From a virus (lineage: Duplodnaviria; Caudoviricetes): 61,630 nucleotides of DNA. Within the stretch, counting starts at the first letter, position 1; each line of letters opens with the position of its first letter. Below are positions 693 through 61,513 of the stretch, in pieces. The stretch spans positions 1-61,630 of the IMG/VR virus record IMGVR_UViG_3300020186_000025; one strand, written 5' to 3'. A program made the position numbers and the translations under genes. Under the pieces are notes generated by a model. It saw only the letters and a list, made by a program, of their open reading frames with translations, was not told where the DNA came from and ran no database searches.

Positions 693-1238
693 ATGGCAAA
701 CTCCAACGCAACGAACCGCTTCGCCACTCGCAAGGGCAAGGTCGCATCCGCCGCCACCGAGGTGGTCTCCGAGATCGTGCCCGAGGTCATCGTGCCCGAG
801 GTCATCGTGCCCGAGGTCATCGTGCCCGAGGTCATCGTGCCCGAGGTCATCGTGCCCGAGGTCATCCCGCCGATGGCGGGTCCGTCGGCCGCCGAAGCCG
901 AAGCTGCACTGTTCCAGCAACGCCAGGCTCTGACCATCAAGGCATGTCGTGGCTTCACCCAGAAGGCCAAGCCTCAGCGCAAGATGTTGCGCCGGATCGC
1001 CAAGATGGGCGTCCACCCCGGAATGGGTCTGGGGATCAAGCGGTGGCACCTCTACCGGGTCGGCATGACCATGCAGGAGGCCAAGACCACGCCGGGCCTG
1101 TGCTACCTGGACCTGACCTTCTGGGAGAAGAACAAGCTGATCGTGATGCGCGACTGCACCGACGAGGAATACGCCGCCGAGCTCTCGTCCTGGGAGGCGT
1201 CCAAGCCCAAGGAAGTCGCGGTGGTCGCCGCCGCATAG
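693..1238 (+). CDS. First early protein with IVPEV x6 repeat; putative DNA-binding domain paralogous to 27141..27929
   Basis: RBS AAAGGAAA before ATG 693; KRW..Y..GMT...D..F motif shared with the 27.1-27.9 kb protein. Confidence 0.8.
   Translation: MANSNATNRFATRKGKVASAATEVVSEIVPEVIVPEVIVPEVIVPEVIVPEVIVPEVIPPMAGPSAAEAEAALFQQRQALTIKACRGFTQKAKPQRKMLRRIAKMGVHPGMGLGIKRWHLYRVGMTMQEAKTTPGLCYLDLTFWEKNKLIVMRDCTDEEYAAELSSWEASKPKEVAVVAAA
774..866 (+). repeat. 15-bp tandem repeat ATCGTGCCCGAGGTC x6 (IVPEV)
   Basis: Six exact in-frame copies. Confidence 0.95.
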
Positions 1239-16614: not shown

Positions 16615-17142
16615 TCAGGAACCCCCAACTTTACCCCGCCACGGTGCATTTGACAAGTCGGAATTGTAATGAATTGCAGCAACCGGTCCTCGTCGCTGGT
16701 CTTGATATTTTCCTTCGTAAGGTTGATCAGTCGGGAAATCCAACCTCTGGAAAACGATTTGAGCGATCGCCATTCCTTTTTCGATCCGCAGAGTTTCCCT
16801 TCCATGGTTGGTCAATTCAAGAGTCAGCCAGCCAGCCCATCCCGGCTCAATAATAGTGTTCTGCACGGCCAAGCCACGACGAGCCCAAGAGGACTTATCG
16901 GCCACCGAAGCGATGAGGTCGTTCGGCATCTTGAACCGTTCAATCGTAGAAGCCAGAATGAAATCACCAGGATTGAGAACACGATAGGAAAAGATTGAGT
17001 TGAGAGCGAACTCGACCCGAACATCGTAGCCTGCTGAACTGAGACCGAACGTCATCCCTTCATATTTTGTTCTCTCATGAAATGGAGAGATCAAATCATG
17101 CTCTTCGCAGTAACGGCGAATAGTTTGTGCGCTGAGAATCAT
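16615..17142 (-). CDS. dcd: dCTP deaminase
   Basis: MILS, GYDVR, KSSWARRGL, IEPGW.G.LTLE, IAQ, Y.GKYQ.Q. Confidence 0.9.
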   Translation of the reverse strand: MILSAQTIRRYCEEHDLISPFHERTKYEGMTFGLSSAGYDVRVEFALNSIFSYRVLNPGDFILASTIERFKMPNDLIASVADKSSWARRGLAVQNTIIEPGWAGWLTLELTNHGRETLRIEKGMAIAQIVFQRLDFPTDQPYEGKYQDQRRGPVAAIHYNSDLSNAPWRGKVGGS

Positions 17143-17540
17143 TTTGTCTTTTTCCCCACATGCTGAAACGATCCGTCAGAAGCGATTTCCCAAGAGCGCT
17201 TCTTGTTGACTTCCAATTTCTTGGCGACAGCTTCCATGAGATCGCCGCCATTGATCTCACAGATTTGTAGCAGGAAGAAAGCGACATCGGCGCATTCTTC
17301 GATGATTTCTTCCTTTTCACCGGGTTTGTTGATCAGAGTCGAAATCAACTCAGCCATCTCTTTGTTTCCACGAACGGAAAGCGCAAGGGGCGAAGGATTC
17401 CCGAACATCACTTTCGCCCAATCCCAGACCTGCCCTTGAACAGAGCGAACAGGTTTGCCAGCCTCGCAGTCGCAGACTTTCTTCAATCCGCAGGCACAGC
17501 CGCCGCCTTGATCATACTTTGCCATGTTTTTCTTCTCCAT
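17139..17540 (-). CDS. MazG-like nucleotide pyrophosphohydrolase
   Basis: W....FG, KE..EL, EECADV, K...N..R.W. Confidence 0.75.
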   Translation of the reverse strand: MEKKNMAKYDQGGGCACGLKKVCDCEAGKPVRSVQGQVWDWAKVMFGNPSPLALSVRGNKEMAELISTLINKPGEKEEIIEECADVAFFLLQICEINGGDLMEAVAKKLEVNKKRSWEIASDGSFQHVGKKTK

Positions 17541-17727
17541 GATTCTTCATGCAATGGAGGCTGAGACAGACCCCATTGTCGTCTACGACGGTTGGTCCGC
17601 ACCCCTCGCAGAGACAGCACCAGCCCTGTCCATCTTCGAGTTTGCTCCCATCGCCGAGACCCGCAAGGTCTTTGTAGTCCTCGGTGAAAATGTCCATAGA
17701 ACACTGTTGGCAGAAATCGGCCATCAA
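17512..17727 (-). CDS. Small Cys-rich zinc-binding protein
   Basis: FC.QC, CEGCG...VD..G.C...C. Confidence 0.7.
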   Translation of the reverse strand: MMADFCQQCSMDIFTEDYKDLAGLGDGSKLEDGQGWCCLCEGCGPTVVDDNGVCLSLHCMKNHGEEKHGKV

Positions 17728-17748
17728 AAGGCTCCTGAGTGTGAGATG

Positions 17749-19860
17749 TTAGACACTTACTGATTCTCCCCAGCTTGGACCACATTCGGTATCTACATTA
17801 AACGGCACCAGAGGAGTGCAGACCTCTAATATCGAATTCTTCATGATCTCTCCAACAACTTTGGCTTCTTCAACTGAGCCATAGCTTCCGTCAGTTTCGT
17901 CATGCACTTGAAGTTGAATGAAATGACCAGCCGCATCGATGTCGGTAACAGCTTTCTTCGCTTGATCTGCTGACGATCCTTGGATCACTCTGTTCAAGGC
18001 TTTGTGTGTCCAATCATAAGAGCCATCGTCGCGTGTCGGGAAATGAAGACGACGACCCATGATGGTTCTCACGAAACCGTTTGCTCCGGCCTTGTCACTC
18101 GCTTTCTGTGCAAGCTGGCGGACATATGGAACCTCAGCATCGAAGTTATCGATAATCGCTTGACCTTCTTCACCAGCCATTTCTTTGATGAATCCTTGCC
18201 CAGAAGAGGCTCGGGCTTTCCACGCGTCATGACGGTTATCGAAGAAATCGATTGCTTTGGTTCTTCCATATCCTGTTATGTGTGCCCAGCGAGTAGGCTT
18301 GCCAATGTCCAGGCAGAGTTTCTGCCCACCCTCGCCATAACATAAACCGAGGAAGATATTCTTTGAGTAGCCACGGTTCATCTTGTAAGAATTATCACCA
18401 TCTTTCTTCAATTTCAACCACTGATCAACAAGTTCATCAGTGTGGATGAGACGAGTCATCATTTCGTGGTTGTCTGTCTTCGGATTGTCGCGATATCTCT
18501 TCGCTGCTTCACGGGCTTTAGGAAGATCCATGACAGCGGCGAAGTGAGTTGTCCATCTTGGCTCTTGTTGGGAATAATCGTTTACTCCCCAAATCGCGCC
18601 TTCTTCTGGAATGAATATCTTGCGCCATTCCAAGATGAGTTGCGGGTCGTGAGGCTGGACGCGGTCAGGAGAATATTGCTGTTGGAGATTTGGATCTACA
18701 GCTGAGAGTCTTCCAAAACGAACTCCCTTTTGCTCACCCTTTTCATCTTCACGAGCGATCTGATTGAAGGTGCAGTGAATTCTTCCGTTGACCATATATT
18801 TCCACATGGAAGCTGCGAAAGTGGTCCTGATCTTATTGACCTTGCGAGCGTTGGAAATCGCCCTTGCCACAGGATGATTAAGACCGTCCAGCAAATCAGC
18901 ATCGATCTGCGGAGCACCAGTTGAAGTCCTTGCCAGTTTGACACCGATTGATTCGAGTGCCGGGGCGAGAGCATCTGGTTTCCACACGTTACCGACGTCA
19001 ATTTTGACGCCTGTCTCGTGCCTAATGAAAGTTAAGGCTTCTCCTTCTTCACGGAGAGCACGATCTTCAATCATTCTGAGTTTGTCTTGATCAATGCGAA
19101 CTCCACGTTGACGCATACGAACCAGAACTGGAAGAAGTCTAGACTCGAGATCAAACACTTGCCAAAGATCATCAGAGTCTAGTTTCTTCCTCATCTTCTC
19201 GTAGAGTTCCAACGGCGATTCCACATCTCTTGTCGCATAGTCACCGACGTATCTCGCCGGGAGACGCCACATTCCCGCGCCGGGATCAACTCCCATTGCC
19301 TGAGCAGCTTGAGTGAGAACCGCCTTGTTTTTGGATTCGACACCCCAACGCTTGCCGATATTCTCGAGGCTGTAGCTTTGATGAAGTTCGTAGATGATCG
19401 GGTCCGCAATCTGGACATCGCGGAATTTGCACTCCCGATTAAACTCAAACCCATCAGAATTCGCATAATCGATGTCGTAACTGAGATTCGCACCAACATA
19501 TTCTCCCTTATAGTCTTTGATGTTTCCCTTTAGATAGCGAAGGACTTCCTCGGTCGGAAGATTATCGCCGCCTTCGTGACGCATTGGAAGGTAGAAACTG
19601 TCAACAACCCTGCCGTCTTTTTCGAGTGCAATTCCCCATCCAGTTGTGAAGGCTCCTCTCCTTGGGCCAGGACCTAGGTCGCGAAGATGAACGTCTTTCG
19701 TTTCGCAATCAAATCCTATACGATCGATGCCAGCCCAAGAAGGAAGGTCAGAGATCGCTCTGGGTCGCCAGTCGCTTTCGGGCGTGAAGAATCCCATCTG
19801 CAACGGAGATTTTCCAGCGTTTCTGGCTTTCAGTTCTTGCTGTTTTGTCTGACGAGCCAT
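17749..19860 (-). CDS. polA: Family A DNA polymerase with 3'-5' exonuclease
   Basis: DCET (ExoI), NLSYD (ExoII), YA..D (ExoIII), GRLS..DPNLQQ, DYSQQEPR (A), R..K...LG..YG (B), QVHDE (C). Confidence 0.95.
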   Translation of the reverse strand: MARQTKQQELKARNAGKSPLQMGFFTPESDWRPRAISDLPSWAGIDRIGFDCETKDVHLRDLGPGPRRGAFTTGWGIALEKDGRVVDSFYLPMRHEGGDNLPTEEVLRYLKGNIKDYKGEYVGANLSYDIDYANSDGFEFNRECKFRDVQIADPIIYELHQSYSLENIGKRWGVESKNKAVLTQAAQAMGVDPGAGMWRLPARYVGDYATRDVESPLELYEKMRKKLDSDDLWQVFDLESRLLPVLVRMRQRGVRIDQDKLRMIEDRALREEGEALTFIRHETGVKIDVGNVWKPDALAPALESIGVKLARTSTGAPQIDADLLDGLNHPVARAISNARKVNKIRTTFAASMWKYMVNGRIHCTFNQIAREDEKGEQKGVRFGRLSAVDPNLQQQYSPDRVQPHDPQLILEWRKIFIPEEGAIWGVNDYSQQEPRWTTHFAAVMDLPKAREAAKRYRDNPKTDNHEMMTRLIHTDELVDQWLKLKKDGDNSYKMNRGYSKNIFLGLCYGEGGQKLCLDIGKPTRWAHITGYGRTKAIDFFDNRHDAWKARASSGQGFIKEMAGEEGQAIIDNFDAEVPYVRQLAQKASDKAGANGFVRTIMGRRLHFPTRDDGSYDWTHKALNRVIQGSSADQAKKAVTDIDAAGHFIQLQVHDETDGSYGSVEEAKVVGEIMKNSILEVCTPLVPFNVDTECGPSWGESVSV

Positions 19861-19862
19861 CC

Positions 19863-20411
19863 TTAATTCTCTTCACCACAGCCGCGTCCAGACTTGCCAG
19901 TATCTACAGGGTCGAGGAACTGGTCCCACGGTATCCAACCTTTTGGACAATGAAATCCCCAGACCCGAATTTTTGGCCCGGTGATGAACAGAGTCCAAGC
20001 CTCACCTTCTGGCAGTTTCAAAAGATGAGCATACTCCTTGCAACGCCATTTGAAATCACCAACAAAAATATGATTGATTCGGAAAAGGAGAGCGTTACCA
20101 AAATGTTCGGTGACATAGGTTTCACTCTCAATAAGAGGATGCTCGCTCCAGTTGATCAGCTGATGCTCTTCAATGCGTCCCTTGACACACAGAGACAAAG
20201 ACCACCATGGATGATCATGAGCAGCACGATCGTCATCATCATGCTGCATGTGATGCAGATAGATGTTGAAGAACTTGTTCCTCGGTATCACAAACCACCG
20301 ACGCATATAGGGATCGTCCTTATTCGGACCGATCAGGAAGTCGGGGTCACGCTTTGGAGGGACTTTGCTCCAAATCCAGCTGGCGAGAACTCGACCGATT
20401 ACGTTGCTCAT
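19863..20411 (-). CDS. Conserved cupin-like phage protein
   Basis: NIYLHH...DDDRA.HDHPW, H, WTLFITGP....WGF. Confidence 0.7.
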   Translation of the reverse strand: MSNVIGRVLASWIWSKVPPKRDPDFLIGPNKDDPYMRRWFVIPRNKFFNIYLHHMQHDDDDRAAHDHPWWSLSLCVKGRIEEHQLINWSEHPLIESETYVTEHFGNALLFRINHIFVGDFKWRCKEYAHLLKLPEGEAWTLFITGPKIRVWGFHCPKGWIPWDQFLDPVDTGKSGRGCGEEN

Positions 20412-20443
20412 ACTTCTCTCTCCTCTTCATACCCGAATTGGTG

Positions 20444-21001
20444 TCATGCTGTTAGCCATTGGGAAGCCATAGCTTTCGCAATTCCGACATATGTGCGCGA
20501 ACGATCCTTCCAACGATTCGGTCCAGGTGCCATCCTATGAACTCGTGCTTCGCGCCCGGTGACGTTATCAGTCGGCTGCAACAGCGGCAGTCCTTTCAGC
20601 CACAGACAGGTGGCCTTGGTTTCACCGTGACCGAACTGATGCGGTTGGATGATCTGATCGGGCTTTCGCCAATGGCTCGACATGATGCCAATCGGGTTTT
20701 CAATCGCAATGCGCGGGATGGGTGAATTTGCCAGCGCCATGAAGAAGGCGATGCTGGCCTGTTGCCGCCCATCTGCCCGCTTAGCCGGGAACCATCGCGC
20801 ACCACTGACACACAGATCGGTGCAAGGCGGGAATGCTATGAGCATGTCCCAACCGTTTTGAAGCACGTCCATCACATCGCCTTGGTAATGCGGGCCTGGA
20901 GTCTCGCTCGGCAGGAGATCGCACGATATGGCGTCAACACCCGAAGAAAGAAAGGTGTCTCTTACAATTCCAGAGAATTCGCAGGCGATGAGCACTCTCA
21001 T
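20444..21001 (-). CDS. Short DNA cytosine methyltransferase-like protein
   Basis: VLIACEFSG, AFPPCT (PC motif), IENP, K.TCLW, RS.T..GIA.AMA.QW. Confidence 0.7.
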   Translation of the reverse strand: MRVLIACEFSGIVRDTFLSSGVDAISCDLLPSETPGPHYQGDVMDVLQNGWDMLIAFPPCTDLCVSGARWFPAKRADGRQQASIAFFMALANSPIPRIAIENPIGIMSSHWRKPDQIIQPHQFGHGETKATCLWLKGLPLLQPTDNVTGREARVHRMAPGPNRWKDRSRTYVGIAKAMASQWLTA

Positions 21002-21627
21002 GCTCCATCCTCTTCATCATACCCGAATGGATTCTCCATACCAGTGAGACCACTTACTTGTGACCCTGCGGTTGCGGTGGTGGTTTGCCCCTGCCCTATG
21101 GCATGGCCCGCGCCGCCACAGGGCGGGGCAAGGGCAGGGCTTGGCCCGGTGCTGGGTGCTGTAGGGGCCGGGGGCCGGGCTTGGCCCTTAGCGGCCCGCC
21201 CTGCATCGTCCAGAATAGTCTGCAGAACTGCCTTCGCTTGCAGAATACCGAAACGTTCATAGGAGAGAGACATCAAAGAACAGAACAACTGTTCAACAGG
21301 TTTCAGACTGGCTGATTCGTAAAAACGGTTGTTGAACATAACCACTCTCTCGTTTATCATACCTCGACGATAGTGTGTCATGTCAGTCGTCAGAATCTTG
21401 TCAACGTATGACATACCCTTGAGAAGGTCTTGAATACCATTCTTCTTCTGCCACCGAGAGACATACTTCGTGGCGTTGCCAGCAAGGTATCCCATGCCAA
21501 TGTCAGGAACCCAGTCCCAATGCTGATATTCAGCTTGATAGTGATCGCCTCCTTCTTGGGCTACGAAGGTTTCACTCCCCGAGTTCGTTGATTGGGTCCC
21601 AGTAGTCGGGGTTGGAAGACGTGCCAT
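20998..21627 (-). CDS. DUF3310 (T7 gp1.7/SaV-like) protein, candidate nucleotide kinase, with Pro/Ala/Gly-rich tail
   Basis: Q.GGDHY....QHWD, GNATKY.SRW..KNG..DL.K. Confidence 0.8.
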   Translation of the reverse strand: MARLPTPTTGTQSTNSGSETFVAQEGGDHYQAEYQHWDWVPDIGMGYLAGNATKYVSRWQKKNGIQDLLKGMSYVDKILTTDMTHYRRGMINERVVMFNNRFYESASLKPVEQLFCSLMSLSYERFGILQAKAVLQTILDDAGRAAKGQARPPAPTAPSTGPSPALAPPCGGAGHAIGQGQTTTATAGSQVSGLTGMENPFGYDEEDGA

Positions 21628-22129
21628 TGATTATCTCCTTCATGAATTTATAGGCTCGCACAGTCATCGCTTCTTTGGCTTCCTTCGAAAACCAGAGTTC
21701 AACTCGGCGTTGCATCTTTTTCATGTTGCGATTTCCAAGGCTCTCTTGATCCAAGATCCAGAGATAGAATTCACATATGTCGAGGCTACCGAGCCAACGC
21801 TGGTCTTCTCTCGAGAGCGTTTCCCAGAAATCTGTTCCTTTAAGAATCCTGTCCGATGCGTCGCTATATGCTTTCTTGTCAAGGACAACGAAAGCTGGAC
21901 GAGGTGTGTCGCCCAGAAGACGTTCTGGAAGATCATGGGCAATGATAGCCCAAAGGAGAGCGGCAGGAGCATCTGGATGAAGAACTCTCAGAAGACACAA
22001 CATGCCGAAAGAGTGTTGACCGACGTCATACTCACCGATGATCTTCTGCGCGTGGACGCGGCGAACCGCCGCGCCCTCTCGTGCAAATTTCACCCGAGCA
22101 ACGTCCCCTTTGAGGACGTAATCCATCAT
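21572..22129 (-). CDS. HD-domain 5'-deoxynucleotidase-like phosphohydrolase
   Basis: V.R.H......V..HS, HDLPE...GD.P.P. Confidence 0.8.
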   Translation of the reverse strand: MMDYVLKGDVARVKFAREGAAVRRVHAQKIIGEYDVGQHSFGMLCLLRVLHPDAPAALLWAIIAHDLPERLLGDTPRPAFVVLDKKAYSDASDRILKGTDFWETLSREDQRWLGSLDICEFYLWILDQESLGNRNMKKMQRRVELWFSKEAKEAMTVRAYKFMKEIINGTSSNPDYWDPINELGE

Positions 22130-23193
22130 GCCCGACGATCCAGCCATTCGATGCAGGCTTTCCGCCAATCCAACGCGGCACAACCGCGAAGGTGTTTCTT
22201 CGCTTCTTCGACCCGCTGACGTTTCGAGCCCTCGTCTGTCTTCCAGGCGAACCATGCCTGCCAGATGGGACACACGACCTTGCGGAAGAACTTGTCCTGA
22301 AAGCCGGTAGCAGGGCCGACGTCCATGAACATTTGCAATTCGCGAATCCAAGCACCAATTTCGCTGTTCACCATCTGGAACGGTTCAACCGGATCTTGCC
22401 CTTTGATCTGAATGTAGGGATTGTCGAAAGGAAGAGGATCGCGGTCGGTGAACCCTGCCAGTTCACGAACAGGGTCCAACGTCTTCAGATAGGAATGAAA
22501 GTTGTTGGAAATCTGCCAGTAGCGACCGACGGGAACTCCGATCCATGCCGCCATGAACTCTTGGAGCATGGAGAAGTGGACAGCATTCGCGCCATAGGTT
22601 CCCCAGACCATGTCGTTGGAACGGTTCGTGACCGACATGTCCAATGACCCGTGGACGCTGATCGAAAACATGATCGTCGTGTTACAGGGAATGTCTTTCC
22701 CCTGACGACCGAGGTCATCTTCGGCCGACCACATGCTCACAACGGCGCGACGTTCATCGGGGTTTTCCCGAAGCATTCCCGCAACGCATTCCAGCTGATT
22801 GAACGGGACATAGGCTTCGCCATGAGGGTTCTGGTCATTATCAGTGAATTGCTGTCTCACAAAATGATTCACCCACCGATAACCGTAGGCTCCGTGGAAC
22901 GTTTCACCATCATCACTGAACTGGCTGATGTTGGAAGAAAACTGGCTGATCCAAGCGACGTCATTGCGACCAGCGATCATCCACAAGCCTTCCATGAAGT
23001 GGAAGAAAGGATTGCAGTCACGCTCAGGATGGAACATGACCCGCTCAAGAGGTTTCAGGTAGAGCGTGGTCACAGGACCGTCGATCAGTTTGACGTCGCC
23101 AGCGCGGGACTGACGATCGAATCCTTCCTTAAGGATCATCGCAACTCCCTTGGGCAACGCTTCGTGAACGTTTCTTGCTTCGATAACGTGCAT
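22126..23193 (-). CDS. Thymidylate-synthase-fold dUMP hydroxymethylase
   Basis: YG.R, RRAV, DIPCN, RSND..WG.YGAN (Asn indicates dUMP specificity; Asp is expected for dCMP), NFH.Y; C-terminal extension. Confidence 0.85.
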   Translation of the reverse strand: MHVIEARNVHEALPKGVAMILKEGFDRQSRAGDVKLIDGPVTTLYLKPLERVMFHPERDCNPFFHFMEGLWMIAGRNDVAWISQFSSNISQFSDDGETFHGAYGYRWVNHFVRQQFTDNDQNPHGEAYVPFNQLECVAGMLRENPDERRAVVSMWSAEDDLGRQGKDIPCNTTIMFSISVHGSLDMSVTNRSNDMVWGTYGANAVHFSMLQEFMAAWIGVPVGRYWQISNNFHSYLKTLDPVRELAGFTDRDPLPFDNPYIQIKGQDPVEPFQMVNSEIGAWIRELQMFMDVGPATGFQDKFFRKVVCPIWQAWFAWKTDEGSKRQRVEEAKKHLRGCAALDWRKACIEWLDRRA

Positions 23194-23202
23194 CGTATTT
23201 CC

Positions 23203-24468
23203 TCACAAACCGAAATGATTGAACATGATTTCCTCGGACTTTTTCTCGAGGGCAGGGACCTCTTCGTAAGGCAGAGGTTGCTCACCGATATCGTCGGTAG
23301 CGATATCGATAATTCGTTTGGCGATAACGTCAGCGTCGAAACACTGAACGAGTTCGCGGACTTCTTGACGCATACTGCTCACATCTGTAGAATCAGAACT
23401 CGCGTGATGCACCATCTCTGCGTAGGTCAGATCGTCTGCATCCATCGGGATGGACACATAATGAACATCTGGCAGGAACAAAGAGTTTCCAATGCCGAGA
23501 GGACGACCGACAGGGATAGCACCATTGATCGCAGCCTCGACGAAGACACGACCATAGAACCCGCCGCGAGGACCAAGACGAGTCGACCAAGAAGGATCGA
23601 CAAGAACCCGCGCCGATTGCAGAAGAAGGTCGACCTGATCACGCTCGATGTAATCGTGATGGACCATGCCGTTGTTTTCGGCCGCTTCCCAGATACGCTC
23701 GCCATCTGCATGAAAATACTTGTCTTTGCATTTGTTTGCAGAAGTCATATACTGATATTCGATACCCTTTCCGAAGATATCCCTGAACTCCATGTCTTCC
23801 TTCGGCGGCATATGACGGACCGCACGGATCAGGTCATCGACGTGCTTGAGACCTTTGAAAGTCTGGAGGCTGACGAAACCTTTGCGACGATCAGCCCAAG
23901 AAGGGACTTCCCGGTTGACATCGCGGAACGGATTGAGGACATGGAACCTCGGTGTCCTGATGAACGAGGAGCCGCCGATCGCCGAATGGTGGACACACAG
24001 AACAGCATGAAGCCTGTCCTGAATTTCCAGGACATATGGATAGCGATCGCAGGCACCACCGTCGTGAACGAAGGCCATCTGGACAGGGTGCTTGAGATCG
24101 TAAAGATCGCGCCATTCCCAGTTGCCTTCGTTCTCAGCATTGGTCGATGGAACCGGAATCGTCCAGAGGATGATGTCATATTCTTCCAGCCACTTCTTCG
24201 CTTGGGCCAGCATCTTCCCGCCCTGATAGGGAACCTTCTTCGCTTTGGTGAAGACCCAACCGATTTTCTGGTTATAGAGAAGTCCGGACTCAGACCTCGA
24301 GAAGTCCCCTGTCCGAGGATTTCCATCTTTCTGGTCTTTGTCGCTGTAGACAAGTTGAAGCAGATCGACATCGTGGCCTTGCCTTTTGAGGCCATAGATC
24401 AGGTCCTCAGTGTGATTGATGATCCCACCGAGGTCCATGATCTTGTAAAGGGCGACAGCGATTTTCAT
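23203..24468 (-). CDS. GT-B fold (GT4-like) glycosyltransferase
   Basis: GGI..H...L...L...GHDV; K.LK.VD.LI.A; VDPSW...YGRVFVEA...GA.PV. Confidence 0.8.
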   Translation of the reverse strand: MKIAVALYKIMDLGGIINHTEDLIYGLKRQGHDVDLLQLVYSDKDQKDGNPRTGDFSRSESGLLYNQKIGWVFTKAKKVPYQGGKMLAQAKKWLEEYDIILWTIPVPSTNAENEGNWEWRDLYDLKHPVQMAFVHDGGACDRYPYVLEIQDRLHAVLCVHHSAIGGSSFIRTPRFHVLNPFRDVNREVPSWADRRKGFVSLQTFKGLKHVDDLIRAVRHMPPKEDMEFRDIFGKGIEYQYMTSANKCKDKYFHADGERIWEAAENNGMVHHDYIERDQVDLLLQSARVLVDPSWSTRLGPRGGFYGRVFVEAAINGAIPVGRPLGIGNSLFLPDVHYVSIPMDADDLTYAEMVHHASSDSTDVSSMRQEVRELVQCFDADVIAKRIIDIATDDIGEQPLPYEEVPALEKKSEEIMFNHFGL

Positions 24469-25469
24469 GCTTTGACTTCCCATGAGCGAAGAACAGGCGC
24501 TGTCAGCGGTCCCTTCTTCAAGGTTTCAGCGATCAGGACCAAGTCTGCTTCACTCGGTTCTGGGAGTTCCTCTTTACCAAGGTGATCCGGCAAAATGCCT
24601 GGACGCATTGACAAAGTGTCACAACCATCACAGGCACCGAAGTCACGCTGTCCATGATAAAGTTTTCGACGAAGAGCATACATTTCCTCGGAGTGCCAAA
24701 TTTCATCAAGACCTTGTTCATGAATAGATCCAAGAGGAAAGACTCCTCTCCAATCATTGCAGCAGGTTGCTACTTGTCCATTCCACCGAACATTGAATTC
24801 TCTGAAAGGTTTCGCACACCTTCTTCCCTCAGCTTTATCGTTTTTGGGAGCCCCCGATCCGGCATGATTGCTGAGTTTGCTGTGAGTGCCACTGGTGCTG
24901 ACATCGATTGGCCTGATCCAGATAAGCCGCTTCTTCGTATTGCGCTTATGAGGATTGCCGACACCCCCACAAGAAGGATAATCGTAAAACGTAACGCTGC
25001 CATCAAACAATTTGTCGCCGGTTTCGAGAAAACCACAACCTTGCTCTTGCTTGATTTTCTCCAGGATCTTCGGCACCAGCTTAATCGTCTGGTATTCGTC
25101 CAAGCCCAGAGTAGAAAGGCCAGCGCCGAACATTTCTTGGACGGTCTTTGTGGAAGTATCGCCAATGATTCCTCCACCATTGCTTTCGAGCAAGATGTAG
25201 GCTTTCGGCAGGTGCCGTCGGAAGATTGCGATCAATTCCAGGAAGTCAGGATTCATCGTCGGCTCGCCGTGCATAGCGATTTCAACTCTACTATTCCAAC
25301 CAAGAGAAGCCATTTGCTTTGAAACAGATTCCGCAGTTTCGCGAGTCATCAGCTTATAGTTATTTTCTTTTCCCCTGATAGCGTTCAGACCACAAAATCC
25401 ACAACGAAGATTGCAGCCCTCTGCAAATTCTATGTGAATGACGTATGGATTTCCTTGGCGATAGTTCAT
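24465..25469 (-). CDS. Radical SAM enzyme with SPASM/twitch domain
   Basis: CNLRCGFC, GEP, SNG; C.KPF....W.G.V..CC.D....LG.I....L.EIW...C..C. Confidence 0.9.
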   Translation of the reverse strand: MNYRQGNPYVIHIEFAEGCNLRCGFCGLNAIRGKENNYKLMTRETAESVSKQMASLGWNSRVEIAMHGEPTMNPDFLELIAIFRRHLPKAYILLESNGGGIIGDTSTKTVQEMFGAGLSTLGLDEYQTIKLVPKILEKIKQEQGCGFLETGDKLFDGSVTFYDYPSCGGVGNPHKRNTKKRLIWIRPIDVSTSGTHSKLSNHAGSGAPKNDKAEGRRCAKPFREFNVRWNGQVATCCNDWRGVFPLGSIHEQGLDEIWHSEEMYALRRKLYHGQRDFGACDGCDTLSMRPGILPDHLGKEELPEPSEADLVLIAETLKKGPLTAPVLRSWEVKA

Positions 25470-26185
25470 GATTCTTTCCTTCTGTATCCTGCGATGGTTT
25501 GCCAAAGACCGCTGTTGTCTAAAGTTGGGGCGATGAATGATTCCCAACCGTTGTCAAGAAAATAAGCATCCAAATGTCTTGCGTTCTCAAGTCTCCCAAC
25601 TGTAAGATGTATTTCAAAAACTACCTCTTTCAATTTCGGAAAATCAGCGATCGCTTCATAGATTTCGTATTCCCCTCCCTCACAATCAATTTTCGCTACA
25701 TCTGGATTCGTTTCTTCCAAAACCTTTTGAATAGAAACAGCCGATACTGTTGAGATTGTTCTTCCTCTTGTCTTTCTGGTTGTATAATTCCCAGAGTTTT
25801 TCCCAGAAGTAGAAATATAGAAATCAACAAACGGTTGTTCACCGTTAATCACAGCCGATTGACAAAGAACAATTTCTTCTTCAGGGCAATTCAATTGAAA
25901 CATTTCACAGTTGAAGGGCTCAGGCTCGAAAGCATAAACTTTCTTCGCATTATTGTCCAAAGCCCATCTTGAAAATAAACCGATATTTCCACCGATGTCA
26001 AGAACCACATTATCTTTTACAGATAATTTTCCGTATGAACGATAAATCTCTTTTGCGATATAGAGATCATAAGTGTCTTTTCTGCAAAAGATTGGAGTTG
26101 AAAATCCTTTTACTGATTTGACTTCAATTTCTCTTTCTTCGACAGTGCCATTCACTATAATTTTGGCGGTTTTTGATTCAGTCAT
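25466..26185 (-). CDS. FkbM-family SAM-dependent methyltransferase
   Basis: VLDIGGNIG, AFEP.P.N, KIDCEG.E, E.H. Confidence 0.88.
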   Translation of the reverse strand: MTESKTAKIIVNGTVEEREIEVKSVKGFSTPIFCRKDTYDLYIAKEIYRSYGKLSVKDNVVLDIGGNIGLFSRWALDNNAKKVYAFEPEPFNCEMFQLNCPEEEIVLCQSAVINGEQPFVDFYISTSGKNSGNYTTRKTRGRTISTVSAVSIQKVLEETNPDVAKIDCEGGEYEIYEAIADFPKLKEVVFEIHLTVGRLENARHLDAYFLDNGWESFIAPTLDNSGLWQTIAGYRRKES

Positions 26186-26232
26186 AGTTGACTCCTATCT
26201 CATGTTTGATCTTTATTTCAGAAAGCGTTTGG

Positions 26233-27141
26233 TTATCTTCCTTTATACCGACTTCTTGGTCTTCCTTGTCCCAGACGAGTGCGCTCATACTTGTCGAACT
26301 CACAAAGCTGGAATTGAATGTCTGTCGGGAATAGCTTTCCATATTCCTTAGGCCAGAACTCTCCTTGGGCTTCGTAAAGTTGCATTATGATCTCCATCGG
26401 CTTGCCCTTGCCAATGTTGACCGTCGTTGGAGAGTCATGCCCAAGAAGGCGAGCAGCACCACGAACACCACCGGGACCGACGGGAGTCCAGCGATCATAG
26501 TCTTCGGGATAGGTGAACGTGCGGTTGTCCACATGTTGGATTTCACCACCCCAGAAACTTGTCATCATTGTGTCCAGGAGAACTTCTTTGGTCATGAAAC
26601 CAGAGCCGCCGAAACCTTTGATCGTGGACATTGCACCAGCCAAATCTCGCCAGCTTCTTGTCTTTTGAACTTGCTCCAAAAGAGCAGGCACAGCGTCATA
26701 AAGATCGGAAAGAAAGTGACGGCAAACGACTTGCGGCTTGGGAGCACTCATACCCTGATTCGTGACGACATAAGCCCCTGTGAAAACACGCAGACCATCC
26801 GCGAGGCGATCTGTTGCACAGTCTTCGATCTCCAACAAATCGAAGCTTTCGTAGTCATACCAACCGACTGCCTGAGCGAATTCGAATGTTCCGAAGTATC
26901 GATAGACTGCACAGTTGATCAAGATGGAACGAGGGTCATCATCGAAATGATCGTAGTAGAACGTCGAGCGCAACATATCCGATGTCCAATCGTGATGTCT
27001 ACGAACGTTCGTGAATTTGTATTCTTGGAGGATGGGATCATCAGTCCAAGGGCGAGGCTGGCCAGCCTCCTTGCGGAGACGGACCAGTTCCCGCTTCTTC
27101 ATGTAGTCGAAGAAGCGGGGAGTTGCGATCGGTAGGTCCAT
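26233..27141 (-). CDS. aGPT-Pplase clade 1 / 5-hmdU DNA kinase helical-domain family protein
   Basis: R..G..PWT.DPIL..YKFTNV.R..D, FTGAY, G.G..F...E, GPG..RG, DIQ..LCEFDKY.R. Confidence 0.85.
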   Translation of the reverse strand: MDLPIATPRFFDYMKKRELVRLRKEAGQPRPWTDDPILQEYKFTNVRRHHDWTSDMLRSTFYYDHFDDDPRSILINCAVYRYFGTFEFAQAVGWYDYESFDLLEIEDCATDRLADGLRVFTGAYVVTNQGMSAPKPQVVCRHFLSDLYDAVPALLEQVQKTRSWRDLAGAMSTIKGFGGSGFMTKEVLLDTMMTSFWGGEIQHVDNRTFTYPEDYDRWTPVGPGGVRGAARLLGHDSPTTVNIGKGKPMEIIMQLYEAQGEFWPKEYGKLFPTDIQFQLCEFDKYERTRLGQGRPRSRYKGR

Positions 27142-27929
27142 CAGGACGTTGCGGTCCCGGTGGCGGTAGCACCCGCGTTCGCAGCAGCAGCGTCTTTGGC
27201 AGCTTTCTCGGAGTCGCGCTTGGCTTTCGCTTCGACACGCTCGGCTTCCTTGGACGTCTTCTCGGCGTCGCGCTTGGCCTTGGCGGCATCACGCTCGGCG
27301 TCTTTGGTGACCTTCGTCGCAGCGCGTTCGGCATCCTTGCGCTTCTTCTCGACCGTCGGGTCTTCCTGGCCATTGCGGGCGAACCATGCAGACAGACCGG
27401 TCTCGAACTCTTCGGTCGTCGGCTCGATCAGCTTCATATAGCCGTGTTGAACGAAAAAAGAAACGTCGATTTGCGTCATGTCTTGGCCCTCGATCGTGTC
27501 CAGGATCGTCATGCCATTCTTGTAATTGCCCCAGCGTTTGCTTCCACGATCGGGCATCTCGACCAGCTTCTGCAGACGACGGAACATATTCCGGGTCGGG
27601 CGCTTGACGGTCTTCGGCTGAGCGGCCTTGACTTCGACCGGCTCTTTCGGCTCGGCGGGCGGCTTCTCAGCTTTCGGAGGTTTCGGAGTCTTGACGGCCC
27701 CGATCGCTTCGCCAGCGGCCTGATTTTCTTCTGCACTCATCTGCTCATTCCACTTGTTGAGCGCCTTCCAGGTCGCTTCGACGGCCTGATCATGATCGCG
27801 GAACGATTTGATCGAGGAGACGCCCATGTTGGTCGCGACGAGGTTTCGCAATTTCAGCAGATCGACGTCTTCTATCCCTTTGAGGGTGGCCTCGTCATAA
27901 TCTGCGCCGCTGAACGTGATCTTGGTCAT
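27141..27929 (-). CDS. Putative DNA-binding protein with K/A/E-rich histone-like tail; first gene of the modification operon
   Basis: AAAGGA RBS; central domain paralogous to 693..1238; KRDAE/KAKRD repeats. Confidence 0.75.
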   Translation of the reverse strand: MTKITFSGADYDEATLKGIEDVDLLKLRNLVATNMGVSSIKSFRDHDQAVEATWKALNKWNEQMSAEENQAAGEAIGAVKTPKPPKAEKPPAEPKEPVEVKAAQPKTVKRPTRNMFRRLQKLVEMPDRGSKRWGNYKNGMTILDTIEGQDMTQIDVSFFVQHGYMKLIEPTTEEFETGLSAWFARNGQEDPTVEKKRKDAERAATKVTKDAERDAAKAKRDAEKTSKEAERVEAKAKRDSEKAAKDAAAANAGATATGTATS

Positions 27930-28031
27930 TGTGTTTCCTTTCATTGGTCAATACCTCGGCCTTGCCTTAGCCCTTTACTTATGGCATGTCGGCAAGGCCG
28001 GAGCAACAGTTATTTTTCACGCGCCTTGGAA

Positions 28032-29831
28032 TTATTCAGCACAAGGTCCAGTTCTTTGACCTGTTGTTGAATCGAACCCGCAGGACTCGCCTTCCTTCGT
28101 ATCTTTGACTTCGGCAACGTCAGCAGAACTGATGACATCCTCGTAGTTGCCGTTCGGGCGATACGTCGTGCATCCCTTTGCTCCGCCTTCATAAGCAGAG
28201 ATATAGAGATTCTTGAACTTCTCGTAGGGGTAGTTGGTTGGCACGTTGCATGTCTTGCTGACAGCACTATCAATGTGAATCTGCGACGTGCAGAGAACTT
28301 TGATATGTTCTTCAGCAAGGACATCAACCATCCGGCGACCTTTGACGCCGAGAACGCTGGAACCATAATCAGGAACTCTGACCTTGATCTTGCCTTCTGG
28401 CATGATCACGTTCCGGTCCTGTTCATAACCGAAAACAGGCTCGATACCGCTGGACACATTGTCAGCTGTGAAGCTGATTGTTCCGGTCGGCGCGATGCTC
28501 GTCAGGTGAGAGTTACGAATGCCGTATCTCCTGATCAAGTCGCGAACGTCGCTGTCCAGAGATTTGATGAACTGTCCGGACAAATATAGTGTCTCATCGT
28601 AAAGGGGAAAGCTGCCCTTTTCTTTCGCCAGCATGGCCGAGGCAATGTAGCAGTTGCGAGTGATGAAGCGCAAGATATCGTCTTCAACATGAAGGAAGTT
28701 TGGAGATCCATAAGAGAAACCCATAGCCTCGATGCAGTTCGCAAGACCAGTCACACCGAGTCCCATTCTTCGCTTCGCTTGGGCTTCTTTCCGTTGCTCA
28801 GGAAGAGGGTAGCGAGCCCGATCGACAATGTTGTCCATCGCTCGGACCACATGCGGAATGTCAGCGGCGAGAAGTGACCACTGGAATTCCCATTTTTTGG
28901 AAGTCAAGTTCCGATCCAGATATTTCACAAGGTTGAACGAGCCCAAGAGACAGGCACCATAGGGAGGGAGCGGCTGTTCGCCACACGGATTCGTTGCGGC
29001 GATCGTCTCACAGTAATAGAGATTGTTCAGCCGGTTGATCGTGTCAATGAACAGAACACCCGGCTCGGCCCAATCGTAAGTTCCTCGCATGATCATTTCC
29101 CACAGAGCGTGGGGATCGACCTCGCGGTAAACTTCGCCGCCAAATCGCAGAGGGAACGCCCTGCCGGTTTGGACACACTCCATCAGTTCGTCGGTGATGG
29201 CGATCGACATATTGAAACCGCGAAGTGGACGATACTCATACGGAATGTGAGCCACGCCCTGTTTCGCACGAATGAAGATTTCAACATCGGGATGGTCTGC
29301 CCGTATGACCAGCATCTGCGCCCCGCGACGGTTGCCAGCGGACGACGTAGCACCACAGACAGCGTCATAGATCGGAGCGAAGGCCATTGGCCCATCAGTA
29401 ACGGATTGAACTCCGCGGATTAGGTCGCCTCTCGGACGCAGAGTGCTGATGTCGTAACCGACGCCGCCACCTTGGCGCATAGTGATCGCAGCAGCTTTCG
29501 CAACGTCCATGATCGACAGCGACGGATGCTCGCCGATCGACAACTCCGAAAGTTCCTGGAGAGTCGGGCCATCAGTGAAACTGTCGTGCATAGTCGGCAT
29601 CACGAAACAGTTGTAGGGGGTGATGTTCTTCAGAGAACCCATCGCTGCCTGAACACGGCCAGCAGAAAGATATCTCATTTGCAGCCTCGCATCACGATAG
29701 GCCATATAGTGTTCGTGATTGTCTTGAAGCGCAGAACTTTCGCGATTGCAGGCTTCCCGATAAGTCTCACCCTTTCCTCGATATTTCTCTGCATGGACCA
29801 TATCACTTGCGGGGACGCTGGGACCTATCAT
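28032..29831 (-). CDS. nrdJ: Class II (adenosylcobalamin) ribonucleotide reductase
   Basis: NCFV, GGGVG, RRGAQM, FN.S, EPG..F.D, TNPCGEQPL, C.LGS.N, IAPTGTIS; no beta subunit. Confidence 0.9.
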   Translation of the reverse strand: MIGPSVPASDMVHAEKYRGKGETYREACNRESSALQDNHEHYMAYRDARLQMRYLSAGRVQAAMGSLKNITPYNCFVMPTMHDSFTDGPTLQELSELSIGEHPSLSIMDVAKAAAITMRQGGGVGYDISTLRPRGDLIRGVQSVTDGPMAFAPIYDAVCGATSSAGNRRGAQMLVIRADHPDVEIFIRAKQGVAHIPYEYRPLRGFNMSIAITDELMECVQTGRAFPLRFGGEVYREVDPHALWEMIMRGTYDWAEPGVLFIDTINRLNNLYYCETIAATNPCGEQPLPPYGACLLGSFNLVKYLDRNLTSKKWEFQWSLLAADIPHVVRAMDNIVDRARYPLPEQRKEAQAKRRMGLGVTGLANCIEAMGFSYGSPNFLHVEDDILRFITRNCYIASAMLAKEKGSFPLYDETLYLSGQFIKSLDSDVRDLIRRYGIRNSHLTSIAPTGTISFTADNVSSGIEPVFGYEQDRNVIMPEGKIKVRVPDYGSSVLGVKGRRMVDVLAEEHIKVLCTSQIHIDSAVSKTCNVPTNYPYEKFKNLYISAYEGGAKGCTTYRPNGNYEDVISSADVAEVKDTKEGESCGFDSTTGQRTGPCAE

Positions 29832-60843: not shown

Positions 60844-61034
60844 GAATAGGGATTAGGAATAGGGATTAGGAATAGGGATTAGGAATAGGGATTAGGAATA
60901 GGGATTAGGAATAGGGATTAGGAATAGGGATTAGGAATAGGGATTAGGAATAGGGATTAGGAATAGGGATTAGGAATAGGGATTAGGAATAGGGATTAGG
61001 AATAGGGATTAGGAATAGGGATTAGGAATAGGGA
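60844..61034. repeat. 13-bp tandem repeat GAATAGGGATTAG x~14.7
   Basis: Exact period of 13. Confidence 0.97.
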
Positions 61035-61069
61035 GCCACTGGCCACTGGCACTGGCAGGCTGGCAGGCA

Positions 61070-61109
61070 GAAAATAGTTGTTTACATATGCACAAGTTAG
61101 GTGTAGGCT
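61070..61109 (+). promoter_or_regulatory. Early promoter TTTACA-N17-TAGGCT
   Basis: GAAAATAGTTGTTTACAT-TGCA-AAG shared with the promoter at 233-274. Confidence 0.75.
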
Positions 61110-61146
61110 AACGGTAGGGCAATACCGCCCACATAGGTTAATAAAC

Positions 61147-61446
61147 ATGCCACGCACCCCACCCGGGCCCATACACAACTGGCGCAGCACCTACACTGCT
61201 ATGCACATAGCACACCTGCAACAACAACGGGTTGTAGAAATGCTTGTGCAGGCGCTGTGCTGTGCAGTTGCTAACCGCCAGCACGCCACCACAATAGCAG
61301 CGCTAGAAAATTCTATTGCAGCGGCAGCCACTGTGGAAAATAGCATGTTGCTGGCATTGCCTGGCATTGCCCAGTTGTTGCCTACGCTGCAAACAATGCC
61401 CGGGCTAGGTGTGGCCAGCGGCAGTGCAATAGGCAATAGGCAATAG
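61147..61446 (+). CDS. Hypothetical early protein nearly devoid of TC/GA dinucleotides
   Basis: Follows a promoter; 99 aa with no Asp, no Phe, and Glu only as GAA. Confidence 0.5.
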   Translation: MPRTPPGPIHNWRSTYTAMHIAHLQQQRVVEMLVQALCCAVANRQHATTIAALENSIAAAATVENSMLLALPGIAQLLPTLQTMPGLGVASGSAIGNRQ

Positions 61447-61497
61447 GCAATAGGCAATAGGCCACACCTGGGCTAGCCCAGGTGTGGCCTATTGCCT
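61426..61497. repeat. GCAATAG x5 running into a 46-bp perfect palindrome (61452-61497)
   Basis: AGGCAATAGGCCACACCTGGGCT|AGCCCAGGTGTGGCCTATTGCCT. Confidence 0.95.
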
Positions 61498-61513
61498 TGC
61501 CATGCTAGCCCAG

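Follow-up and report, generated by a model that had tools for sequence, protein, structure and literature searches.

What does a bacteriophage build on its thymidine if it has an enzyme for making 5-hydroxymethyl-2'-deoxyuridine (5-hmdU, here also hmdU) but not the kinase that would phosphorylate it in DNA? To our knowledge, every characterised thymidine hypermodification begins with the phosphorylation of 5-hmdU, which is followed by the transfer of an amino acid or amine. The question is raised by an operon in the tailed-phage sequence IMGVR_UViG_3300020186_000025, where a thymidylate synthase (TS) homologue is preceded by genes for a glycosyltransferase (GT), a radical S-adenosylmethionine (SAM) enzyme and an FkbM methyltransferase. 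The window referred to throughout is the whole of this IMG/VR record, 61,630 bp with an estimated completeness of 97%. On balance, the answer is probably a kinase-independent, sugar-type hypermodification, involving hmdUTP, glycosylation within DNA by a GT-B enzyme, oxidation of the sugar by a radical SAM enzyme resembling BtrN, and methylation by FkbM.

The minus strand carries every gene between 16.6 and 29.8 kb (Table 1). These run from ribonucleotide reductase (RNR) through a 267-aa protein, a helical protein of family PF18723, FkbM, the radical SAM enzyme, the GT, the TS homologue and an HD-like hydrolase to a DUF3310 protein, a C5-methylase-like protein, a cupin, a family A DNA polymerase (PolA), a MazG-like protein and a dCTP-deaminase-like protein. 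The intergenic junctions between the 267-aa gene and PolA range from -56 to +47 nt, and the genes are therefore tightly coupled. Open reading frame (ORF) coordinates and family scans agree with the initial annotation, which had described a single coupled minus-strand operon in this order; its gene list is correct as far as it goes but had passed over two members, those for the 185-aa C5-methylase-like protein and the cupin.

To judge by sequence, the backbone is of the Mesyanzhinovviridae type. The M6-like phage AN14 and phage PhiJL001 both have RNR, helical protein, TS, HD, DUF3310, PolA and primase in the order of the window, and the comparison with YuA/M6/PhiJL001-like genomes that the initial annotation had called for places the window in synteny with the M6/YuA and PhiJL001 phages. 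In all three genomes RNR is the upstream border of a slot that is differently filled. Directly upstream of the helical protein AN14 has an ADDT, a pyridoxal phosphate (PLP) enzyme, a radical SAM enzyme and a kinase, while between the helical protein and TS there is a TAGT glycosyltransferase in PhiJL001 and FkbM, the radical SAM enzyme and the GT-B enzyme in the window.

A search of the entire 61.6-kb record with PF18724 (ADDT/aGPT-Pplase2) found nothing at E<=1, and tblastn of the AN14 kinase, ADDT, PLP enzyme and radical SAM enzyme against the record gave nothing better than E 0.09, which was the best value for the ADDT (the kinase reached E 0.2). Of the five Walker-A matches in the record, the helicase and the primase account for two and one lies in sequence that precedes any start codon; the other two are in late-region ORFs beyond the reach of the family-library scan, one of which resembles a large terminase in length and position. 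The Pfam scan covered 32 window proteins, a set that stops short of the ORFs from about 36 kb, and no kinase or PLP family is present in it. The lack of a P-loop kinase, an aGPT-Pplase2 and a PLP enzyme that had been claimed for this locus therefore holds in each of these searches, clade 1 of the aGPT-Pplase proteins (PF18723) being present and clade 2 (PF18724) absent.

The radical SAM enzyme had been labelled a radical SAM/SPASM protein. It is a radical SAM enzyme and does match the SPASM profile, but it does not have a full SPASM domain. In an alignment of 25 family sequences, C19, C23 and C26 (CX3CX2C) are invariant, and the five conserved C-terminal cysteines (C218, C236/C237, C280, C283) fit one auxiliary cluster of the Twitch type. 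A SPASM maturase with two clusters needs seven or eight C-terminal cysteines, and the NCBIfam SPASM models all scored far below their cut-offs. In the PDB the best match of the family profile is BtrN (E 1.7e-21), far ahead of the next structure (1.1e-5); profile positions 186-275 align to BtrN residues 169-260, cysteine columns included, and the radical SAM core aligns too. An AF2 model (pLDDT 88.4) has BtrN as its Foldseek match at E 7.2e-14, with the dehydrogenases anSME (the second family) and SpeY among the lower matches, and with VIA it superposes on BtrN with Z 24.2 and a root-mean-square deviation of 2.6 Å over 237/246 residues, the next structure having Z 14.7 and anSME 13.8. Profile and model alike indicate a BtrN-like Twitch enzyme, related over its full length to BtrN, which is itself a Twitch dehydrogenase of sugars or cyclitols. 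By analogy it is probably a sugar-carbinol dehydrogenase, the oxidation of carbinol to carbonyl being a property that we infer from the family only. A tblastn search of 50,697 GenBank phage records with this protein and two divergent members of its family gave only one weak match, to an uncultured phage.

Homologues of the radical SAM enzyme, 34-100% identical, are present in 36 IMG/VR contigs, for which all counts refer to the stretches fetched. The PolA proteins of these contigs are 23-96% identical to that of the window, and several backbones are therefore involved. A glycosyltransferase-like gene is found near the radical SAM gene in 33 of the 36, mostly directly adjoining it; in two of the remaining contigs (L022 and L030) the contig ends at this point, and in the third (L033) there is an unknown 305-aa neighbour. 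These glycosyltransferase-like neighbours are of the window type in 5 contigs, of a 340-aa family (c0) in 15, of a 323-aa family (c7) in 5 and TAGT or TAGT-like in 12, some contigs having two glycosyltransferases. The c0 family is homologous to the GT of the window (hhalign 95%, E 3e-8), and its profile finds nothing significant among PDB sequences. The c7 family, called BGT/GT1-like solely by ESM Atlas look-up, has an alignment almost without diversity, with which hhalign gave probabilities of 0.1-1% against the window GT or c0. In L021, L023 and L029 the c0 gene is adjoined by a gene (c11, e.g. L029 6123-6992) in which a cytidylyltransferase-like domain is fused to a mannose-6-phosphate-isomerase/cupin domain, an arrangement that points to synthesis of the sugar donor by some of these phages themselves.

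The pairing extends to gene fusions. At E<=1e-30 the radical SAM family has 375 relatives among 1.84 billion cluster representatives, and the best 150 of the 375 include two fusions of TAGT with radical SAM (P0002, P0008) and one probable GT-B-radical SAM fusion (P0023), the N-terminal half of which is c0-like (hhalign 78%, E 1.9e-5). Two other homologues in this set (P0010, P0149) contain inteins, which in one case include an HNH endonuclease. Among metagenome-assembled genomes, a Verrucomicrobiales contig has the helical protein, radical SAM, TAGT, TS, HD and PolA, and a Bacteroidales contig has a TAGT gene approximately 550 nt downstream of the radical SAM gene. A prophage of Actinomadura rayongensis DSM 102126 (L045 7914-16563) carries radical SAM, a C5 cytosine methylase, an unknown gene, a ParB-like gene, c0 and Tet_JBP, with small and large terminase genes directly after Tet_JBP; this prophage is a culturable handle on the GT-radical SAM pair.

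The source of the hydroxymethyl base varies among these loci. There is a TS homologue in 29/36 contigs and a Tet_JBP oxygenase instead in 4/36, with neither in L023, which is cut 149 nt past the gene, L041 and L042. The radical SAM enzyme thus accompanies a glycosyltransferase whether the hydroxymethyl base comes from TS or from TET, even where the base is probably 5-hydroxymethylcytosine (5hmC), which argues that its substrate is the sugar and not the base. The conserved core is the glycosyltransferase with the radical SAM enzyme, joined in TS-type phages by the helical protein. The initial annotation had the radical SAM enzyme remodel a sugar; synteny and fusions do tie it to the GT, and the role is now narrowed to that of a BtrN-like, probable sugar-carbinol dehydrogenase.

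The GT itself is recognizable by its fold. Its Pfam scores are all sub-threshold (Glyco_transf_4 17.5 bits against a cut-off of 28.5; Glycos_transf_1 15 bits), its family profile finds nothing among PDB sequences, tblastn found no match in the same 50,697 GenBank phage records, and IMG/VR holds only four near-identical copies. In Foldseek, an AF2 model made from a 16-row alignment (pLDDT 67.8, pTM 0.75) lists GT-B structures at every match, among them BshA (E 3.3e-11) and T4 alpha-glucosyltransferase (AGT; E 4.8e-11). The highest Z with VIA is 25.6, and T4 AGT on DNA containing 5-hydroxymethyluracil follows at 25.0-25.2 with the longest alignments (345-347 residues) at a sequence identity of approximately 14-15%. 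These values are tied, and the model is therefore described as a GT4-like GT-B enzyme compatible with a DNA glycosyltransferase and not as an AGT orthologue. The GT-B label given initially agrees with this fold, T4 AGT being among the tied best matches; nothing in the analysis speaks for attachment of the sugar through a phosphate, which had been offered as an alternative. It is context, namely the position in the slot and the exchange with TAGT in related loci, that makes the GT a candidate for sugar transfer to 5-hydroxymethylpyrimidine in DNA. A predicted complex of GT and radical SAM scored 0.00, which speaks neither way on binding, and the isoelectric points of the GT, radical SAM and helical-protein families (5-10) are uninformative on DNA binding.

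The base on which the sugar would be placed is indicated by the TS homologue. Phage M6 modifies thymidine via 5-hmdU, as described in PMC5889632 and PMC8989533. Alignment of the window protein to solved TS structures and to the CMP hydroxymethylase MilA places its catalytic cysteine within the motif PCN, with Asp at the position of E. coli ThyA Asp169, Asn at that of Asn177, where MilA has Asp, and Lys/Asp in place of Leu143. The same motifs are found in all 28 aligned homologues, including those of AN14, to which the window protein is 45% identical, and PhiJL001. In the account of these enzymes in PMC13326640, Asn177 goes with the use of dUMP, loss of Leu143 with hydroxymethyl products and D169N with 5-hydroxy-dCMP synthases. 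With Asn177 and Asp169 kept and Leu143 replaced, the TS homologue therefore reads as a predicted dUMP hydroxymethylase, and the TS-fold enzyme with a dUMP-specific Asn that had been reported from this locus is indeed of that kind. A dCMP-directed or hydroxylase reading is rejected because of the residue signature, the 5-hydroxy-dCMP synthases of the RB69/DLP3 type described in PMC13326640 having Asn169/Asp177 where this protein has Asp169/Asn177.

What the analysis shows is which genes are present, to which families and folds they are assigned, which genes are lacking and that GT and radical SAM are coupled; from this we infer a pathway, including each of its chemical steps and their order, the DNA-bound sugar as substrate and the identity of that sugar. 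The dCTP-deaminase-like enzyme would supply dUMP, which the TS homologue would convert to 5-hmdUMP, and the DUF3310 kinase-like protein together with host kinases would take this to hmdUTP, while the HD and MazG-like hydrolases would trim competing nucleotides. PolA would then make hmdU DNA. After replication, the GT-B enzyme would move a sugar from a host nucleotide-sugar to the 5-CH2OH of hmdU in DNA, where an alpha linkage would be expected because of the retaining GT4/AGT-type fold. The BtrN-like enzyme would take a hydrogen from a carbinol of the sugar to leave a ketone, and in the window phage FkbM would O-methylate a remaining hydroxyl. The PF18723 protein would act in some way on hmdU in DNA. 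Glycosylation of hmdU, remodelling by the radical SAM enzyme and methylation by FkbM had been proposed before; the kinase-free character of the locus and the GT-radical SAM coupling stand, the chemistry built on them is a proposal, and FkbM becomes optional.

The FkbM assignment, well above the curated cut-offs, agrees with the initial one; the gene is, however, an add-on outside the conserved core. It is found in 3/36 related contigs. In two of these (L008 and L009) the protein is 100% identical to that of the window, with neighbouring genes at 85-100%, and the FkbM-type protein of the third (L013) is 26% identical. The gene is absent from the close relative L007/L010, in which the helical protein is followed directly by radical SAM and most flanking genes are 92-97% identical. 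Its GC content is 0.376, against 0.48-0.58 in neighbouring genes. From these comparisons FkbM is a recently acquired tailoring gene, and an optional one for a last step, since it occurs in so few contigs and is missing from so close a relative.

The helical protein is a paralogue of the amino-acid:DNA transferases. It is 28-29% identical to the M6-type and PhiJL001 proteins, and its orthologue is annotated as "aGPT-Pplase clade 1" in the GenBank records of AN14 and SN1, the Pfam name now being HMUDK_hel; both the match and these records support the aGPT-Pplase1-type label given initially. It is found in 29/36 related loci, in 0/4 of the Tet_JBP loci and not in the Actinomadura prophage, and PF18723 proteins also accompany the TS route in M6, ViI, PhiW-14, SP10 and PhiJL001. 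It thus tracks the TS route and not the glycosyltransferase or radical SAM enzyme as such. Across 16 diverse members there are 22 invariant columns, and two of these, the adjacent Cys280 and Glu281, belong to a conserved motif close to the C-terminal end. According to PMC8989533 and PMC11472151, the amino-acid:DNA transferases need a cysteine that attacks C6 of 5-phosphomethyl-2'-deoxyuridine (5-PmdU), Cys247 in PaMx11 gp46, and a nearby glutamate. Cys280 falls on this Cys247 in one weak alignment without statistical support (hhalign 1.5%), a further weak link being a sub-threshold Pfam match in PhiJL001 gp19, and the helical-protein profile finds nothing among PDB sequences. In M6 the kinase and transferase are reported to be enough for modification (PMC8989533). 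The helical protein may present hmdU to the other enzymes or may do C5 chemistry of its own. Its link to the TS route and the invariant Cys-Glu pair would fit a function connected with DNA in which hmdU has fully replaced T, possibly the conversion of hmdU to T.

Several points weigh against the proposed pathway. Its chemistry is read from genes and not from the nucleosides of this or any related phage. The substrate of BtrN is a free cyclitol and no polymer; the window has no sugar-nucleotide genes; and the GT has no significant match to any curated glycosyltransferase family in Pfam, PHROG or NCBIfam, has a model of only moderate quality and shares a common fold that leaves the substrate unfixed. 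As regards the relatives, several of the 36 contigs are near-identical and the set cannot be counted as so many separate lineages, the c7 call is a language-model look-up only, and two TAGT-like calls, affecting three contigs (c15 in L015 and L039; the L042 gene), fail to reach the Pfam threshold. Participation of the helical protein is itself presumed.

The cyclitol substrate of BtrN leads directly to another order of events, in which the radical SAM enzyme, with or without FkbM, acts on a nucleotide-sugar or on a free sugar or cyclitol and the GT then transfers the finished group. BtrN, the closest relative, uses a small molecule (PMC10337720), the c11 gene beside the GT in three contigs is of a kind that would make a donor, and a GT-radical SAM fusion fits the channelling of substrate in either direction. 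The window itself is without a donor-synthesis gene. Sugar nucleotides are normally oxidised by NAD-dependent short-chain dehydrogenase/reductase enzymes, and SpeY, a Twitch dehydrogenase, acts on a substrate that is already glycosylated, both of which count against tailoring of the donor; we regard it as possible but doubtful. Oxidation of the 5-hydroxymethyl group itself to give 5-formyl-dU, as anSME acts on the CH2OH of serine, with the GT using other sites, would agree with the place of anSME as second family in the Foldseek list and with the occurrence of the radical SAM enzyme alongside both the TS and the Tet_JBP routes. The match to BtrN is, however, far better than that to anSME (Z 24.2 and 13.8), and the almost constant position of the enzyme beside a GT, or fused to one, would be pointless if it destroyed the acceptor hydroxyl, which makes this reading very improbable.

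It might also be that a known route is present in disguise, with the helical protein and a hidden kinase such as the DUF3310 protein making 5-PmdU and then an amino-acid or amine adduct, and with GT and radical SAM serving something separate. In SP10, PF18723 and the 5-hmdU DNA kinase form one fused protein (PMC5889632), the helical protein keeps a transferase-like Cys-Glu pair, and the PHROG families that DUF3310 matches are named for nucleotide kinases. Yet no PF18724 transferase, P-loop kinase, PLP enzyme or flavin enzyme was found in this 97%-complete genome by the searches described above, with Pfam covering 32 of its proteins, and DUF3310 also follows TS-HD in AN14, which has a DNA kinase of its own, so that we give this explanation very little credence. 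That the FkbM/radical SAM/GT cassette is directed at a virion protein, a surface glycan of the host or a metabolite is very unlikely: its DNA substrate is a proposed one and the best GT4 matches include enzymes acting on small molecules and lipids, but it lies between the helical protein and TS within a replication operon, elsewhere adjoins Tet_JBP, C5-methylase and ParB genes, and is often partnered by TAGT, a TET-associated family of DNA glycosyltransferases. A more far-reaching suggestion, which we consider improbable, is that the pair forms a general "glyco-oxidation" unit writing a keto-sugar on 5-hydroxymethylpyrimidines of DNA, and that in TS-type phages the helical protein with its Cys-Glu pair then uses the oxidised sugar as a leaving group. 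The sugar would in that case replace the phosphate of the kinase route, an exocyclic C5 methylene would be formed and the base would be converted further, one possible outcome being its return to thymine where sites are left unprotected. According to PMC5889632, the way in which these phages obtain T from hmdU is not known.

Table 1. Genes of the operon and its upstream border, with the evidence for each assignment (E values, bit scores or identities)
Feature	Position	Strand	Evidence
Ribonucleotide reductase (RNR)	28032..29831	-	PF02867 E 1.1e-96; 56-57% identity to RNR of AN14 and PhiJL001
267-aa protein with Lys/Ala/Glu-rich tail, operon head	27141..27944	-	no family
Helical protein PF18723 (HMUDK_hel)	26233..27141	-	Pfam E 2.8e-33, 115.9 bits, profile 6-276 of 281
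FkbM SAM methyltransferase, putative accessory tailoring	25466..26185	-	PF05050 43.1 bits (cut-off 22.7); TIGR01444 73.1 (37.7)
Predicted BtrN-like Twitch radical SAM enzyme, CX3CX2C and one auxiliary cluster	24465..25469	-	Radical_SAM 41 bits, SPASM 50 bits
GT-B glycosyltransferase (GT4-like, retaining-type fold), candidate hmdU-DNA glycosyltransferase	23203..24483	-	fold
TS homologue, M6-type dUMP-hydroxymethylase kind (predicted)	22126..23193	-	PF00303 E 1e-20; phrog_5131 E 2e-117
HD-type phosphohydrolase, candidate (d)NMP/dNTP hydrolase	21572..22129	-	phrog_6047 E 5.2e-30
DUF3310 protein, candidate hmdUMP nucleotide kinase	20998..21627	-	PF11753 31.9 bits (cut-off 24)
185-aa C5-methyltransferase-like protein	20444..21001	-	phrog_757 "DNA methyltransferase" E 2.4e-69
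Cupin-like 182-aa protein	19863..20411	-	phrog_4786 "cysteine dioxygenase" E 7.9e-46
Family A DNA polymerase (PolA)	17749..19860	-	47% AN14 "DNA polymerase A", 40% PhiJL001 polymerase
MazG-like all-alpha NTP pyrophosphohydrolase (weak call)	17139..17540	-	sub-threshold Pfam E 0.009-0.06
dCTP deaminase/dUTPase-fold enzyme	16615..17142	-	PF22769 E 3.7e-26; dUTPase E 4.3e-10

The HD and MazG labels given initially correspond to genes that are present, but their Pfam matches are sub-threshold, that of HD being to HD_3 (E 0.0024, 18.2 bits against a cut-off of 22.5); the HD protein is 36% identical to a "putative phosphohydrolase" of AN14. In the closest relatives an unrelated 151-aa ORF takes the place of HD after TS (L007 3871-4326, corresponding to window 21572-22129), and the HD and cupin genes of the window are similar to the ones in L011 and L013, which are less closely related; the operon is a mosaic. 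The DUF3310 protein matches PHROG families labelled "nucleotide kinase" (phrog_236, E 6.9e-12), and DUF3310 follows TS-HD in 16/36 related loci as well as in AN14 and PhiJL001. The 185-aa protein has C5-methylase-like motifs and is too short for a target-recognition domain; it has no match in Pfam, NCBIfam or the PDB, and its gene is present in close relatives but not in L011 or L013. The cupin, whose gene immediately precedes PolA and for which a homologue turned up in L013 only, could be another tailoring enzyme, such as a sugar isomerase, or could be unrelated.

The 267-aa protein had been labelled DNA-binding, a label behind which there is no Pfam, PHROG or NCBIfam family. Its gene and that of the helical protein share 1 nt, at the stop of the former and the start of the latter, and homologues occupy the same position in L011 (51%) and L013 (39%). 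A paralogue of its central domain is encoded near the left genome end (858-1214, plus strand; 30% identity over 82 residues, E 2.7e-8). The dinucleotides TC and GA are very scarce at the genome ends (61001-61500 and 1-750): in the 500 nt from 61001 TC occurs once and GA 9 times, where the means for 500 nt are 43 and 40; this depletion has been proposed separately as a possible footprint of sequence-specific modification.

The operon points to a second, kinase-free branch of thymidine hypermodification, in which a radical SAM enzyme would oxidise a sugar once it has been attached. It represents an uncharacterised, widespread variant of phage pyrimidine hypermodification; the GT-radical SAM pair also serves TET-based systems (5hmC or hmU), and the family comprises hundreds of sequence clusters. 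If the proposal is true, both the nucleobase chemistry and the class of DNA-acting radical SAM enzyme would be new; it would also provide new tools for marking hmU and hmC, would bear on the escape of phages from restriction and glycosylase defences, and would explain why such DNA may resist sequencing or cutting. Were the glyco-oxidation unit to be real, it would include the first radical SAM enzyme to act on a DNA-borne glycan. The role of the PF18723 proteins also becomes testable.

As for published work, the passages of Lee et al. on these phages (PMC5889632, PMC8989533) describe kinase-based routes only, and their metagenome survey started from kinase homologues (PMC8989533). Pyle et al. 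(bioRxiv 10.1101/2023.12.21.572611) list glycosyltransferases, along with sugar-modifying enzymes, in the vicinity of ThyS and 5mYOX genes. The terms "radical SAM", "rSAM" and "SPASM" are absent from the main texts, supplements being outside the scope, of PMC8256090, PMC13229309, PMC13697223 and 10.1101/2023.12.21.572611. A literature search, with supplementary tables and figures likewise outside its scope, found no paper on the GT-radical SAM pairing, and none was found on the DNA of PhiJL001.

Among known systems, those of M6, PaMx11, ViI, PhiW-14 and SP10, as far as they are described in PMC5889632 and PMC8989533, are like the window in backbone and slot, type of TS, PF18723 and post-replicative work on 5-hmdU. 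They differ in that the window is without a 5-hmdU DNA kinase, a PF18724 transferase and PLP, flavin or acetyl tailoring enzymes, and in that a glycosyltransferase occupies the place of the amino-acid:DNA transferase. The radical SAM enzyme of M6 (gp53) is photolyase-like and unrelated to the BtrN-like one of the window (no tblastn match). The closest arrangement is that of PhiJL001 (AY576273), which in the same slot has a kinase-free set of PF18723 (gp19), glycosyltransferase (gp22, TAGT) and hydroxymethylase-type TS (gp24); its glycosyltransferase is GT-A and not GT-B, and it has neither radical SAM nor FkbM.

Base J is made by a JBP hydroxylase and a GT-A enzyme that gives a beta-glucoside. 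Both base J and the product of T4 AGT (PDB 1y6f, 1y8z) resemble the proposed modification in having a sugar on a 5-hydroxymethylpyrimidine in DNA, but in neither is the sugar known to be oxidised or methylated, and the base in the window would be hmU from a TS homologue; the base J pathway as such is excluded, the window using this homologue and not a JBP/TET hydroxylase. With BtrN of the butirosin pathway (PDB 4m7t) and SpeY the radical SAM enzyme shares CX3CX2C, one four-cysteine auxiliary cluster and the full-length fold. The identity is 18-21%, the phage enzyme is longer by approximately 85 residues, with invariant His, Arg and Asn that are specific to its family, and unlike both of these enzymes it is found in a viral DNA-modification context. 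Lastly, the C5-methylase/TET/TAGT clusters (PMC8256090; bioRxiv 10.1101/2023.12.21.572611) and the T-dioxygenase clusters (PMC13229309) have the combination of Tet_JBP and glycosyltransferase that is also seen in the four IMG/VR loci and the Actinomadura prophage, and compared with these clusters it is the extra BtrN-like step that is new.

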